64,000 bases of DNA from assembly GCA_030141605.1 (NCBI GenBank), contig JAQGDQ010000912.1, positions 1 through 64,000 of the forward strand, in the 5' to 3' direction. Shown here piece after piece: positions 1,293 to 62,615 of the stretch. The notes beneath the pieces were generated by a model. The model saw nothing but the letters and a program-made list of their open reading frames with translations, ran no database searches and was not told where the DNA came from. The position numbers and the translations under genes are program-made. Origin of the DNA: Tubiluchus corallicola (Eukaryota; Animalia; Priapulida). Numbering within the stretch: position 1 is the first letter of the stretch; each line of letters opens with the position of its first letter.

Positions 1293-1502
1293 CTTTTTCA
1301 CACACAGGATGATGATTGTAATCATTTCTGTTGTCATCCATTCGAAATTCAAGGTCTTCTTTCAACCACATAAACTCAGCAGATCCCGTTGGCTCACCTG
1401 GGACCCATAATTCAAACACAAGCTCCTTGCCAGTTGATTCCCAATAAAATGTTGCACCCACACGATAACCACTCGTCCACACGCCTCCATATGCCATCCC
1501 AT
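1293..1502 (-). CDS. Gene A exon 22, CTLD5 C-half (VWTSG..FYWESTG..WVPGEPT...PVCEK)
   Basis: Phase 1-1, W..GEP and VCE motifs. Confidence 0.9.
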
Positions 1503-4500
1503 CTAAAATAGCTATAGCTTATTAGTTTCAGTTAACAAATTATTTCTTTACTTTTTCTTTTACAAAGACTGTTCAATGTCCACATGGGTCTCATCATTCT
1601 TGTACAAAACAAATATTTGTGAATGCACGTCGCGGCCATTTTGTTTTTGTTCACGCAAGCGTACTCCTTATGAAAAATAAAAACCATGTAATGGATAACA
1701 AACCAGGAGGGGCAACGGAAACTTTACAAGTCCGTGTGACTTGCCCTTGTGAAAGATCCAACTAAGCCAAGTGTTAAGAGCATCGCTCAATGTCTAAACA
1801 CCTTGTCTAATAAAGATCCAACTAAGCCAAGTGTTAAGAGCATCGCTCAATGTCTAAACACCTTGTCTAATAAAGATCCAACTAAGCCAAGTGTTAAGAG
1901 CATCGCTCAATGTCTAAACACCTTGTCTAATAAAGATCCAACTAAGCCAAGTGTTAAGAGCATCGCTCAATGTCTAAACACCTTGTCTAATAAAGATCCA
2001 ACTAAGCCAAGTGTTAAGAGCATCGCTCAATGTCTAAACACCTTGTCTAATAAAGATCCAACTAAGTCAAGTGTTAAGAGCATCGCTCAATGTCTAAACA
2101 CCTTTTCTAATAAAGATCCAACTAAGTCAAGTGTTAAGAGCATCGCTTAATGTCTAAACACCTTGTCTAATAAAGATCCAACTAAGCCAAGTGTTAAGAG
2201 CATCGCTCAATGTCTAAACACCTTTTCTAATAAAGATCCAACTAAGTCAAGTGTTAAGAGCATCGCTTAATGTCTAGACACCTTGTCTAATAAAGATCCA
2301 ACTAAGTCAAGTGTTAAGAGCATCGCTTAATGTCTAAACACTTGTCTAATAAAGATCCAACTAAGTCAAGTGTTAAGAGCATCGCTTAATGTCTAAACAC
2401 CTTGTCTAATAAAGATCCAAGTCAAGTGTTAAGAGCATCGCTTAATGTCTAAACACCTTTTCTAATAAAGATCCAACTAAGTCAAGTGTTAAGAGCATCG
2501 CTCAATGTCTAAACACCTTTTCTAATAAAGATCCAACTAAGTCAAGTGTTAAGAGCATCGCTCAATGTCTAAACACCTTGTCTAATAAAGATCCAACTAA
2601 GTCAAGTGTTAAGAGCATCGCTTAATGTCTAAACACCTTTTCTAATAAAGATCCAACTAAGTCAAGTGTTAAGAGCATCGCTCAATGTCTAAACACCTTG
2701 TCTAATAAAGATCCAACTAAGTCAAGTGTTAAGAGCATCGCTTAATGTCTAAACACCTTGTCTAATAAAGATCCAACTAAGTCAAGTGTTAAGAGCATCG
2801 CTTAATGTCTAAACACCTTGTCTAATAAAGATCCAAGTCAAGTGTTAAGAGCATCGCTCAATGTCTAAACACCTTTTCTAATAAAGATCCAACTAAGTCA
2901 AGTGTTAAGAGCATCGCTCAATGTCTAAACACCTTGTCTAATAAAGATCCAACTAAGTCAAGTGTTAAGAGCATCGCTCAATGTCTAAACACCTTTTCTA
3001 ATAAAGATCCAACTAAGTCAAGTGTTAAGAGCATCGCTAATGTCTAAACACTTTTCTTTTCTAATAAAGATCCAACTAAGTCAAGTGTTAAGAGCATCGC
3101 TCAATGTCTAAACACCTTTTCTAATAAAGATCCAACTAAGTCAAGTGTTAAGAGCATCGCTCAATGTCTAAACACCTTTTCTAATAAAGATCCAACTAAG
3201 TCAAGTGTTAAGAGCATCGCTTAATGTCTAGACACCTTGTCTAATAAAGATCCAACTAAGTCAAGTGTTAAGAGCATCGCTTAATGTCTAAACACCTTGT
3301 CTAATAAAGATCCAACTAAGTCAAGTGTTAAGAGCATCGCTCAATGTCTAAACACCTTGTCTAATAAAGATCCAACTAAGTCAAGTGTTAAGAGCATCGC
3401 TCAATGTCTAAACACCTTTTCTAATAAAGATCCAACTAAGTCAAGTGTTAAGAGCATCGCTCAATGTCTAAACACCTTTTCTAATAAAGATCCAACTAAG
3501 TCAAGTGTTAAGAGCATCGCTCAATGTCTAAACACCTTTTCTAATAAAGATCCAACTAAGTCAAGTGTTAAGAGCATCGCTTAATGTCTAGACACCTTGT
3601 CTAATAAAGATCCAACTAAGTCAAGTGTTAAGAGCATCGCTTAATGTCTAAACACCTTGTCTAATAAAGATCCAACTAAGCCAAGTGTTAAGAGCATCGC
3701 TTAATGTCTAAACACCTTGTCTAATAAAGATCCAACTAAGTCAAGTGTTAAGAGCATCGCTTAATGTCTAAACACCTTTTCTAATAAAGATCCAACTAAG
3801 TCAAGTGTTAAGAGCATCGCTCAATGTCTAAACACCTTTTCTAATAAAGATCCAACTAAGTCAAGTGTTAAGAGCATCGCTTAATGTCTAAACACCTTGT
3901 CTAATAAAGATCCAACTAAGCCAAGTGTTAAGAGCATCGCTCAATGTCTAAACACCTTTTCTAATAAAGATCCAACTAAGTCAAGTGTTAAGAGCATCGC
4001 TTAATGTCTAGACACCTTGTCTAATAAAGATCCAACTAAGTCAAGTGTTAAGAGCATCGCTTAATGTCTAAACACCTTGTCTAATAAAGATCCAACTAAG
4101 CCAAGTGTTAAGAGCATCGCTTAATGTCTAAACACCTTGTCTAATAAAGATCCAACTAAGTCAAGTGTTAAGAGCATCGCTTAATGTCTAAACACCTTTT
4201 CTAATAAAGATCCAACTAAGTCAAGTGTTAAGAGCATCGCTCAATGTCTAAACACCTTTTCTAATAAAGATCCAACTAAGCCAAGTGTTAAGAGCATCGC
4301 TCAATGTCTAAACACCTTGTCTAATAAAGATCCAACTAAGTCAAGTGTTAAGAGCATCGCTTAATGTCTAAACACCTTTTCTAATAAAGATCCAACTAAG
4401 TCAAGTGTTAAGAGCATCGCTCAATGTCTAAACACCTTTTCTAATAAAGATCCAACTAAGTCAAGTGTTAAGAGCATCGCTTAATGTCTAAACACCTTGT

Positions 4501-61500: not shown

Positions 61501-62615
61501 ATGGTGGTCAAGGATCAAGTCTTGTAAGATCATCATGAAAAGTGGAGAAAAAACTGCTTAATTAACAAGAGAAAGAATCATAGAAAAACAGAGAATAGTA
61601 AAGATAAAATAATAGAATAAGATAGAGAAAGAGAGAAGAGAAATGAAATAGAAAGGAGTTCAGCGGAGATACGTGATGCAAAAGTATGAAAATATCAACT
61701 GTAAAGTAACCAGTCGTGGGATGTACTGTAACTATGGAACTTCATGGCATAACCAGAGAATGCTTTATAAGTAGGTTTTGATAGTGTAGTTTCGTGCTTT
61801 TGTCTATGTAAATTTATTATCAATGTCTTAAGATGTATTTCATTGTGCTTTTACTCGTTAATTGTAGGTATTATTTTTTATTTGTATTTTTATATATTAT
61901 TTTATTTTGCTTATAGTAAAACAGTACAGCAGCACAGAGCGGCAGCAGTAAATTATTAAGCAGTACCGAGATGCTGCGTAGCGCTGTGTAAGGCTGTAAA
62001 AATAATTTATTGTTGTTGTCGTCGTCGTCCCCGTTGCTGTTGATGTTTTTACGATCATCATCATCATCATATCCATCATCATCATCATCATCATCATTTA
62101 TCATCATCACCATCACCACCACCATCAGCACCACAATCACCACCACCATCACCACCACCATCACCATCATCACCACCATCATCACCACCGTCATCACCAC
62201 CACCATAACCACCACCATCACCTCCAACATCACCACGACCATCACCACCGTCATCATCATCATTGACCCACCTAAAATCTGTTCCCCTTCAGGCAATAAT
62301 AACTAAACAAAAATTGTTTGTCCAACTGCTTGTCCTTTTCTTTATACTAGACCGTCCCAAACAAGTTCAATGCTAATTTCACTTACTTGTTTCTTTCAAT
62401 ATTTTAGCACTCAGCCTTGAATGTCCTAGTGACTGGAGTTCACAACTAGGACTTTGTCTCAAAGTCTTGAACTTCAACGATGGTAAAACATTTTATCAAG
62501 CAGAAAGGAAATGTCACGAAAACGCTGATGGACGCCTTAGTCACCTTGCAAAAGTTGATTCTCATGGAAAACTTACTGTAATTGTGGAGAATCTATTGAA
62601 CCGTGATTCACATGA
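49415..62615 (+). CDS. Gene B (spliced, 9 exons seen; first exon unresolved, 3' end not found): pentraxin + multi-CTLD protein, paralog of gene A
   Basis: All nine exons phase-compatible; CRP-like GQDQDSVGGDF..QSFMGEI; exon homology to gene A. Confidence 0.9.
49541..49650. repeat. 22-bp tandem repeat x5 starting inside the splice donor
   Basis: Unit taaataaatgtgaagatcactt. Confidence 0.95.
49697..50046. mobile_element. Truncated inverted copy of the 55864-56244 MITE
   Basis: Starts ta/agccttttcacag; colinear reverse-complement similarity. Confidence 0.78.
50936..51060 (+). CDS. Gene B pentraxin exon (WVLTY..GALVSYAVEGTDNAILLF)
   Basis: CRP-like SYA...DN.IL; phase 0-2. Confidence 0.92.
51438..51559 (+). 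CDS. Gene B pentraxin signature exon (DGSFHHLCVTY..YALYVDG)
   Basis: HxCxT motif, phase 2-1. Confidence 0.93.
51681..51909. mobile_element. Penelope-like inverted repeat with degenerate hammerhead-ribozyme cores
   Basis: Arms of about 95 bp (51681-51775 and 51815-51909); each has c(t/c)gatga-stem-(g/a)aaacgttt. Confidence 0.6.
52014..52160 (+). CDS. Gene B pentraxin Ca-loop exon (GGSLIIGQDQDSVGGDFVSGQSFMGEITDV)
   Basis: Canonical pentraxin GQ(E/D)QD motif, phase 1-1. Confidence 0.95.
52974..53132. repeat. Pentanucleotide microsatellite CTTTA > CTCTA > CTCCA
   Basis: Directly visible. Confidence 0.95.
53635..54610. repeat. Degenerate pentamer-based satellite with a higher-order unit of about 35 bp
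   Basis: cagccctgttctaccctgtcctatcatgctc(a/t)gtc recurs. Confidence 0.92.
54736..54908 (+). CDS. Gene B pentraxin C-terminus and linker exon
   Basis: TCHSGYKGNLISW, 173 nt, phase 1-0. Confidence 0.92.
55068..55353. mobile_element. pogo/Tigger-like MITE
   Basis: TA/CAGTAAGTCCTCGCTTAACGA ... TCGTTAAGCGGGGAGTTACTA/TA. Confidence 0.8.
55864..56244. mobile_element. MITE with TIR AGCCTTTTC(T/A)CAG, TA flanks
   Basis: Terminal inverted repeats; second copy at 49697. Confidence 0.78.
56765..57935. repeat. 59-bp minisatellite, about 20 copies, with a 118-bp dimeric higher-order repeat in the right half
   Basis: Unit ttttgcagagggttacccaagctagatttgttcagtaaacctcaaacaattcaaatcag; two variants alternate from about 57240. 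Confidence 0.97.
58012..58193 (+). CDS. Gene B CTLD1 N-part (FCPDGY..GFCYKFH..ICASEGGTLAKID)
   Basis: CTLD motif, phase 0-2. Confidence 0.92.
58350..58537. repeat. (AG)n microsatellite
   Basis: Directly visible. Confidence 0.97.
58913..59022 (+). CDS. Gene B CTLD1 middle (VWIGL..WEWEDG..FDKWAENEPQ)
   Basis: WIGL and EPx motifs, phase 2-1. Confidence 0.93.
60620..60670 (-). pseudogene. Highly degenerate 5S rRNA-derived fragment
   Basis: Minus strand ccaaagttaagcaacatgatggctgatcggtaaatagatgggt resembles 5S CCGAAGTTAAGCAACG...GTACTTGGATGGGT. Confidence 0.5.
60953..61078 (+). CDS. Gene B CTLD1 C-part (HACIEL..YYWKKEECGNNKTVVCEY)
   Basis: Cys pattern and VCE, phase 1-1. Confidence 0.9.
62053..62262. 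repeat. (CAT)n/(CAC)n microsatellite
   Basis: Directly visible. Confidence 0.95.
62408..62615 (+). CDS. Gene B CTLD2 N-part (CPSDW..LCLKV..TFYQAERKCH..HLAKVD)
   Basis: 208 nt, GTGAGT donor, homologous to 20933-21140. Confidence 0.92.

Follow-up and report, generated by a model that had tools for sequence, protein, structure and literature searches.

Does the head-to-head gene pair in this 64,000-nt stretch of Tubiluchus corallicola DNA (hereinafter designated the window) derive from an old duplication of one gene for a pentraxin with C-type lectin-like domains (CTLDs), and what became of the two copies? Gene A lies on the minus strand with its ATG at 42455, and its model comprises 22 exons encoding ~1,070 aa; gene B lies on the plus strand with its ATG exon at 48588 and 10 exons within the window (Table 1). 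The divergent orientation described in the first-pass annotation is seen, and its placement of the B start at "49415 or earlier" proves apt: 49415 marks the second coding exon, and the first (48588-48648) is homologous to A exon 1. Because B exon 1 lies there, the two ATGs are 6,132 nt apart, within the proposed gap of less than 7 kb. On balance, we favour the reading that A and B arose as paralogues in an old inverted duplication, each encoding a predicted protein in which a string of CTLDs comes after a pentraxin head, and that A probably gained, by exon shuffling, a shortened CTLD that would be spliced in.

Table 1 Features of the two loci and of the interval between them, in window coordinates
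Feature	Position	Strand	Remarks
A exon 1, phase 0-1: predicted signal peptide with the ATG	42392..42455	-	hydropathy peak 1.69 over 11 aa
A exons 2-4: N-terminal part of pentraxin, to ~CRP residue 122	41673-41555, 37637-37504, 37041-36914 (36914..41673)	-	
A exon 5: N-half of nested CTLD, 195 nt, phase 1-1	35920..36114	-	Lectin_C E 7e-4
A exon 6: C-half of nested CTLD, 129 nt, phase 1-1	34559..34687	-	
A exons 7-8: C-terminal part of pentraxin, then Cys-containing linker	33965-33861, 33565-33393 (33393..33965)	-	
A CTLD1, exons 9-11	31164-30980, 28740-28625, 27506-27384 (27384..31164)	-	
A CTLD2, exons 12-14	21140-20933, 20050-19947, 17825-17703 (17703..21140)	-	six Cys; single exons without Pfam match
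A CTLD3, exons 15-17	15069-14895, 12637 to ~12466, 11802-11694 (11694..15069)	-	exon 16 end approximate
A CTLD4, exons 18-20	9827-9647, 7160-6996, 6514-6409 (6409..9827)	-	
A CTLD5, exons 21-22, phases 1-1-1	6057-5872, 1502-1293 (1293..6057)	-	
Interval between the ATGs, 6,132 nt	42456..48587	.	
5S rRNA-like copy	43120-43238		
Inverted-repeat element	~45842-46671		
Candidate 5' UTR splice sites of B	donor after 47402, acceptor before 48552	+	
B exon 1: predicted signal peptide with the ATG	48588..48648	+	overlooked in the first-pass annotation
B exons 2-6: uninterrupted pentraxin with calcium loop, then linker	49415-49539, 50936-51060, 51438-51559, 52014-52160, 54736-54908 (49415..54908)	+	
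B CTLD1, exons 7-9	58012-58193, 58913-59022, 60953-61078 (58012..61078)	+	
B exon 10: N-half of CTLD2, phase 1-2	62408..62615	+	gene runs past the window

Gene models and domain content

None of the single exons in A or B encodes a complete domain. A Pfam scan of 30 single exons (E up to 0.1) returns Lectin_C on nine exons and Pentaxin or Laminin_G_3 on A4, B3, B4 and B5, with 17 of the 30 giving no match; the curated cut-off is passed by B5 (Pentaxin, 43.4 bits, cut-off 25) and B4 (Laminin_G_3, 32.6 bits, cut-off 27.6) only. The annotated order of signal peptide, pentraxin and serial CTLDs holds for both genes, and its "five or more CTLDs" is seen for A only, with five downstream of the pentraxin plus one nested; in B one and a half are visible up to the window edge. 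The pentraxin is in frame with CTLD exons in both models rather than standing alone as in the short CRP/SAP type, whose domains assemble into a ring. The signal peptide of A exon 1 is predicted from hydropathy, and both proteins are predicted to be secreted or displayed at the surface.

The model of A runs for 902 and 167 codons without a stop, with introns of up to 6.2 kb. Two junctions stay tentative: exon 16 has a weak donor, and exon 19, which ends in phase 2, is out of register with exon 20, which begins in phase 0. A candidate 13-nt micro-exon (6769-6757) would bridge exons 19 and 20; the other introns of A, 37,472 nt in total, contain no equally good candidate at a threshold set on the candidate itself, and a one-base assembly error at this place is possible. 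Hidden CTLD or pentraxin exons outside the models, including a remnant in B intron 4, were rejected: tblastn finds none, and HMMs built from the modelled exons give one weak match (E 0.37). The long ORFs at 24438-27391, 38671-40983 and 53584-54950 were likewise discarded, being tandem repeats.

A and B are old paralogues

As first described, the shared exons have the same order and phases (10 of 10 agree), and some keep equal lengths, namely A8 and B6 (173 nt) and A12 and B10 (208 nt). The proteins have diverged to 45% amino-acid identity over 412 aligned codons, with 101 of 214 aligned residues identical in the pentraxin region (47%) and 54 of 136 in the first CTLD. Over the 412 codons pN is 0.35 and pS 0.66, and second codon positions are the most conserved, a purifying pattern. 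The introns lack colinear similarity: blastn of locus B against locus A yields five matches, two on exons with short flanks and three in non-colinear repeats near 63564-63884. The level of identity, the pN and pS values and the unrelated introns, together with the shared exon phases, therefore point to an old inverted duplication, in agreement with the first-pass annotation. The window has a GC content of 36% and a CpG observed/expected ratio of 0.66, a composition that suggests the "invertebrate" origin named in the first-pass annotation; the homologues retrieved do not fix a lineage.

Pentraxin heads and CTLD signatures

Both heads carry the H-x-C motif and the Cys36-Cys97 pair (CRP numbering) that identify a pentraxin. 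At the CRP calcium ligands D60, N61, E138, Q139, D140, E147 and Q150, as given in an excerpt of PMC6503050, B has D, N, D, Q, D, V and Q, that is, five of seven identical plus the conservative E138D and the replacement E147V, while A has I, Y, G, Y, T and two gaps, with none retained. The pentraxin of A has a 14-residue deletion of the calcium loop (exons 7-8); in B, neither E147 nor the choline contact E81 is kept. The proposed contrast between one canonical and one remodelled head is thus upheld, B being near-canonical and A remodelled by ligand loss and probably by a nested CTLD. B's head may bind ligands through calcium, as pentraxins do, and A's head may act as a calcium-independent protein-binding or spacer module.

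The six cysteines said to define long-form CTLDs (C0-C0', C1-C4 and C2-C3; PMC9965136, in part) are present in A CTLD1-4 and in B CTLD1, which has a seventh. The nested CTLD and CTLD5 of A have four cysteines and no C2-C3 pair. The exact combination of EPN/QPD and WND occurs in none of the seven complete CTLD modules: A CTLD5 has E-P-T and M-D-D aligned to the sugar-binding motifs, B CTLD1 has E-P-Q only, and the nested CTLD has neither motif. Sugar binding in A, if any, would most likely take place at CTLD5.

A probable CTLD cassette within the pentraxin of gene A

Exons 5 and 6 of A lie inside the pentraxin exon series, and the junction maps to ~CRP residue 123, the end of a peripheral loop (residues 115-123) that CRP is reported to use in pentamer contacts (PMC5784126, in part). 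A phase 1 intron at this position is common to A and B. Both exons have open frames, lengths divisible by 3 and phase 1-1, and their donors rank in the top 0.24% of 2,101 intronic GT sites. The exon 6 acceptor is weak, with 19% of intronic AG sites scoring as well, and exon 6 alone has no Pfam match; compared with exon 22, it is 81 nt shorter and lacks the long-loop segment. Exons 5-6 were rejected as a separate nested gene, with no first exon recognised and internal-type splice sites on both.

Sequence comparison moderately supports CTLD5, the last CTLD of A, as the closest relative of the nested one. Exon 5 is 38-39% identical to exon 21 (tblastn E 7e-10), the insert aligns with CTLD5 at a score of 129 (a z of 23 over shuffled sequences, against 6.4 for the module ranking next), and both have the same two-exon split and the same four-Cys pattern. 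Trees group the insert only moderately with CTLD5 on whole modules (SH-aLRT 86-89, ultrafast bootstrap 75-77) and on N-halves (85/44), and do not join them under a mixture model. Similarity between the intron flanks of exons 6 and 22 ranks third of 496 pairs and is not significant. Between exons 5 and 21 dN is 0.60 and dS 2.79, the latter near saturation. Simulated neutral decay preserved frames and splice dinucleotides in 0 of 20,000 runs with all divergence placed on the copy and in 3 of 20,000 with half, a test that is compatible with recent loss of function.

We propose that the phase 1 intron at ~CRP residue 123 received a copy of a two-exon, phase 1-1 CTLD resembling exons 21-22; phase 1 introns that already exist are, as a rule, where class 1-1 modules insert, according to the available text of PMC3927616. 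The CTLD, its ends tied by the C1-C4 disulfide, would bud from a surface loop, and the pentraxin sandwich would still fold. More tentatively, the cassette may be a splice-switchable CTLD from A's own tail that lost its sugar-binding loop and was grafted onto the CRP pentamer-contact loop; if true, its inclusion or skipping would toggle the partner or the oligomer state of A's head.

Relation to known families

On the favoured reading, A and B are exon-shuffled mosaic lectins, a kind already known. The earlier label "mannose-receptor-type" fails as family membership because the CysR and FNII domains are absent ahead of the CTLDs; that family is described as having a cysteine-rich domain at the N-terminus, with one fibronectin type II domain after it (PMC4229073, in part). 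Its members (MRC1, MRC2, PLA2R and DEC-205/LY75) resemble A and B in their linker-joined tandem CTLDs, most without intact sugar motifs, and LY75, PLA2R and MRC1 rank high when an exon 5/21 profile is matched to PDB sequences, largely because many repeats add up. By contrast, A and B are headed by a pentraxin (exons 2-8 in A), with no CysR or FNII match on the 30 exons, have no TM segment or tail within the window, and show six CTLDs in A and one and a half in B instead of 8 or 10, counts that may rise if the genes continue outside the window.

Among pentraxins (CRP, SAP, the Limulus SAP-like pentraxin and neuronal pentraxins), B exon 5 matches CRP 127-168 (E 6e-6) and related proteins, and both genes have the equivalent of CRP Cys97. 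Unlike in CRP-type proteins, the pentraxin of A and B is the N-terminal module of a long mosaic; in A it retains none of the seven ligands, and the CTLD cassette divides it. The FN2 repeats of MMP2 interrupt the catalytic domain itself. Like the cassette of A, they are internal phase 1-1 modules that occupy a phase 1 intron already in place (PMC3927616); in A, however, the inserted module is of CTLD type, a pentraxin serves as host, and the donor is likely a domain lying downstream within the gene itself. The Xenopus pentraxin-fusion protein Xla-PXN-FBPL also joins a pentraxin to a tandem array of another lectin domain, but the domains are F-type rather than C-type, and the available part of that report describes no insertion inside the pentraxin (PMC5712786). 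No description of a pentraxin-CTLD domain-in-domain fusion was found in the literature searched.

Homologue searches used single exons of 48-68 aa as queries, and the word-index searches covered up to 2,000 aa, so that blanks carry little weight. Alignment queries returned no homologous sequence among 135 candidates for A8/B6 and 145 for A12/B10; the B5 query gave two of 17, both plain shark pentraxins. A profile search of 1.84 billion representatives produced eight matches, seven without pentraxin or lectin domains and the remaining one a five-pentraxin protein, P0007. No orthologue of A or B was found in these searches. None of 70,053 contigs of RNA run X1 falls at 33340-37680, which has no bearing on expression.

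Alternative readings

It appears unlikely that A and B represent just the N-terminal halves of bigger receptors in the membrane, for example adhesion GPCRs or endocytic receptors of type I. In that case a GAIN-7TM or single TM part would lie outside the window, and the string of lectin domains would form an ectodomain instead of a free protein. In favour of this reading stand the truncation of B by the window edge, the strong donor of A exon 22, and the excerpted account that lancelet adhesion GPCRs carry Lectin_C domains and that PTX counts among adhesion GPCR N-terminal domains (PMC2246102). Against it, the modelled parts contain no TM-like segment outside the signal region (highest hydropathy over 19 aa in A, 1.19), and no GAIN or GPS domain is matched in Pfam among the 30 exons scanned. 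Moreover, exon 22 may end gene A, since reading through its donor gives Gly-Asn-stop (1287-1285).

Exon 6 likewise reads through its donor-like site into Gly-Asn-stop (34553-34551), as would fit a duplicated terminal cassette: with CTLD5 as the final domain of A, its copy in intron 4 (exons 5-6) would supply an alternative end, which the long form skips. The short protein would consist of a signal peptide, two thirds of a pentraxin and a compact CTLD; N-terminal CRP strands are reported to be stable without residues 105-206 (PMC5784126, in part). We regard this reading as improbable. The same six-base donor start occurs at four other, clearly internal exons (A3, A5, A8 and B6), and this donor ranks within the top 0.24%. 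The 1,292 nt left after exon 22 contain no further CTLD or pentraxin exon, but with introns of up to 6.2 kb in A, an exon-free stretch of 1.3 kb carries little weight; the two polyadenylation-type hexamers in that stretch are of a kind common in AT-rich DNA.

The first-pass annotation held that one bidirectional promoter drives A and B as a co-regulated functional pair, to which we assign a similarly low probability. An inverted tandem duplication by itself gives the head-to-head orientation on which this view draws. The ATGs are 6,132 nt apart, compared with the often less than 1,000 bp between starts at bidirectional promoters (PMC5499805, in part), although the starts may lie nearer than the ATGs because B likely has a 5' UTR intron. 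The 5S-like copy and the repeat element intervene, the interval has no G+C-rich island, and no common sequence links the two 2-kb stretches upstream of the ATGs, whose alignment score of 29 compares with a mean of 27 and a maximum of 37 in shuffles.

Least probable is that exons 5-6 are silent (once used, now skipped) or that gene A is decaying, with the exon 19-20 phase break a real frameshift: the weak exon 6 acceptor and exon 16 donor, the phase mismatch and the large deletions in exon 6 and the calcium loop are outweighed by the long open frames, the purifying pattern in A versus B and in exon 5 versus 21, and the micro-exon or assembly error that could account for the break.

Implications

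Animals commonly have mosaic lectins and inverted duplicates, and the pair by itself is therefore ordinary; the nested cassette is less so. On the favoured reading, in which A and B are old paralogues and A has acquired a CTLD within its pentraxin, the two may be multivalent proteins for recognition or adhesion outside the cell, their tasks having been split after duplication. If true, gene A would provide a clean natural case of one recognition domain within another. Because the adjoining sister gene keeps the uninterrupted state, the pair would offer a ready comparison of how calcium dependence and ring assembly are lost from pentraxins that find new use as modules, and of how new binding surfaces are built by exon shuffling within one gene.

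Architecture of the gene pair

All-versus-all comparison of stop-to-stop frames detected one minus-strand and one plus-strand series of related exons, whose boundaries we placed at AG and GT. The resulting models of gene A (minus strand) and its paralogue gene B (plus strand) bear out the head-to-head pair proposed in the first-pass annotation; such a pair is by itself ordinary. The ATGs lie 6,132 nt apart, and B, previously thought to start at 49415 or earlier, does start earlier, its actual first exon, with the ATG, lying at 48588. This exon (61 nt) resembles the 64-nt exon 1 of A, each of the two coding for a short hydrophobic leader. 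The predicted order of signal peptide, pentraxin and five or more C-type lectin-like domains (CTLDs) holds for A, with five CTLDs downstream of the pentraxin, and is seen in B as far as one and a half CTLDs, up to the window edge. The modelled parts of both genes show no transmembrane-like segment beyond the signal region.

Coordinates of features in the window
Feature	Position	Strand	Detail
Gene A	42455 to 1293	minus	22 exons
Cassette exons 5 and 6 of A	36114-35920, 34687-34559	minus	nested CTLD
Candidate micro-exon	6757-6769	minus	13 nt; would bring A exons 19 and 20 into frame
Gene B	48588 to 62615	plus	10 exons in the window; gene continues beyond it
5S rRNA-like copy	43120-43238	plus	Rfam RF00001, 69 bits; full-length, degenerate
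MITE- or foldback-like element	about 45842-46671		between A and B; long subrepeat-rich terminal inverted repeats
Intronic minisatellites	1752-4625, 23193-24224, 24531-27359, 32319-33336, 38469-40889, 56764-57939		periods 60, 104, 53, 38, 36, 59

Pfam, run on 30 single exons of A and B, placed Pentaxin or Laminin_G_3 on A4, B3, B4 and B5 and Lectin_C on nine exons; 17 were unmatched. Only two, B4 and B5, cleared the curated cut-offs, as is expected when single exons hold fragments of a domain. When exons are joined, the pentraxin regions of A and B are 47% identical and the CTLDs carry the expected cysteines. Each of the 10 B exons has a counterpart in A that agrees in order as well as in both phases; the two equal-length pairs noted earlier (173 and 208 nt) were found again. 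Amino-acid identity is 45% (pN 0.35, pS 0.66; 412 aligned codons) and intron similarity is confined to dispersed repeats, in agreement with the earlier reading that A and B are an old inverted duplication. Purifying selection has acted on both copies over most of their history.

The reading frame of A has 902 stop-free codons through exon 19 and 167 more starting at exon 20. Exon 19 exits in phase 2 and exon 20 requires phase 0, a mismatch with three possible explanations: the micro-exon, an assembly error of one base, or a genuine frameshift. The micro-exon would add a hydrophobic run to the lectin loop, and is a poorer fit than a difference of one base close to the end of exon 19. The donor tentatively assigned to exon 16 is also poor, being equalled or bettered by 41% of intronic GTs.

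The window, which is animal DNA, has 36% G+C, a CpG observed/expected ratio of 0.66 and numerous minisatellites; judged by this composition, the source is probably an invertebrate. Large intronic minisatellites explain a good part of the length of A and B, and long ORFs in the window were rejected as spurious products of these arrays. A repeat of about 300 nt has two opposite-orientation copies in B introns 2 and 6 (49716-50023, 55936-56274), and a palindromic-repeat element forms an inverted pair in A introns (15150-15680, 31255-31720).

Two pentraxin heads that differ at the calcium-ligand positions

Calcium in human C-reactive protein (CRP) is held by D60, N61, E138, Q139, D140, E147 and Q150, according to passages of PMC6503050. 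We transferred these positions to A and B via an alignment of CRP with a shark pentraxin (P0010); for B exon 5 there is a direct alignment with CRP 127-168 as well. B has D, N, D, Q, D, V and Q (five matches, one conservative change and one loss). A has I, Y, G, Y and T at the first five positions and gaps at the other two, together with a 14-residue deletion in the calcium loop. A near-canonical head (B) and a remodelled one (A), much as first suggested, are recognizable. Because the ligand residues are mostly kept in B and lost in A, B is plausible as a calcium-binding pentraxin and A is not.

A predicted CTLD nested within the pentraxin of gene A

A exons 4 and 7 are the counterparts of the adjoining B exons 4 and 5, and between them A has two additional exons, one of 195 nt and one of 129 nt, both in phase 1-1. 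Joined, they encode a CTLD of 107 aa, in which the N-terminal cysteine pair, C1, a V-W-I-G strand and C4 are retained and the long-loop segment, C2-C3 and the two sugar motifs are missing. It is most similar to CTLD5 of A, encoded by exons 21-22 (shuffle z 23; next module 6.4), with which it shares the two-exon split and four-cysteine pattern. Trees under simple models group the two with moderate support (SH-aLRT 86-89, ultrafast bootstrap 75-77); a mixture-model tree did not settle the relationship. No remnant of the cassette was found in the 454-nt intron 4 of B.

The insertion point in the host domain corresponds to about CRP 123, where the peripheral loop 115-123 ends; this loop takes part in CRP subunit contacts according to passages of PMC5784126. 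The placement also agrees with the entry of class 1-1 modules into existing phase 1 introns, described as usual in PMC3927616. What is unusual about the locus is this CTLD within a pentraxin that lacks the calcium ligands; the DNA sequence supports it well, and its splicing into the transcript is predicted.

Ranked against 2,101 intronic GTs, the donors of exons 5 and 6 both score in the top 0.24%. Exon 5 has a typical acceptor; that of exon 6 is weak yet inside the range of other exons. Exon 5 differs from exon 21 by dN 0.60 and dS 2.79, and when neutral decay was simulated to this distance, frames and splice dinucleotides stayed intact in 0/20,000 runs with all of the divergence placed on the copy and in 3/20,000 with half of it there. 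The cassette thus coded for protein over most of its history. It may have been silenced recently. Exons 5-6 could also form an alternative end of A, as read-through of a donor-like site in exon 6 reaches Gly-Asn-stop. The same occurs in exon 22, which may thus terminate A. However, four clearly internal exons have an identical donor start, and inclusion of exons 5-6 in the spliced A transcript is therefore the favoured prediction.

The interval between the genes

Transcription starts at bidirectional promoters are often <1,000 bp apart (PMC5499805). A 5′ UTR intron is likely in B, which could place the two starts nearer to each other than the ATGs are. The interval between the ATGs contains no G+C-rich island, and no common sequence was found between the upstream regions of A and B. 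Head-to-head orientation alone does not support co-regulation via a bidirectional promoter.

The interval contains a 5S rRNA-like copy, possibly a 5S pseudogene or 5S-derived SINE, with a short tetranucleotide array after it; a second short stretch near 60640-60670 resembles, by eye, part of a 5S-related element on the opposite strand. The inverted-repeat element between the genes recurs at about 15827-16435 and 9983-10412, three occurrences with 89-97% identity over best-matching stretches.

Relation to known proteins and proposed working

Taken as family membership, the likeness to mannose receptors suggested earlier does not hold under the definition in PMC4229073, by which CysR and FNII domains are needed; neither was found on the 30 exons of A and B scanned. 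Pentraxin with tandem lectin domains is already known from a Xenopus F-type fusion (passages of PMC5712786). Full-text searches of the literature and keyword passages of PMC12373286, PMC10140915, PMC9334734, PMC514892 and PMC6003135 turned up neither a pentraxin-(CTLD)n protein nor a CTLD placed within a pentraxin; supplementary domain tables (PMC9334734, PMC10140915) could contain such architectures. Searches with short single-exon queries found no orthologue. The A8/B6 profile matched P0007, a 1,040-aa database protein with five near-identical tandem pentraxin domains. Because lancelet adhesion GPCRs bear Lectin_C domains (PMC2246102), A and B may possibly extend outside the window as membrane receptors.

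CTLD5 is the best candidate sugar site of A, its E-P-T and M-D-D aligning with the EPN and WND positions (motifs from passages of PMC9965136) in solved lectins. We propose that A and B would act outside the cell as multivalent recognition or adhesion molecules, in which the B head would bind ligand via calcium and the A head would offer a calcium-independent surface, its inserted module blocking CRP-like ring contact.
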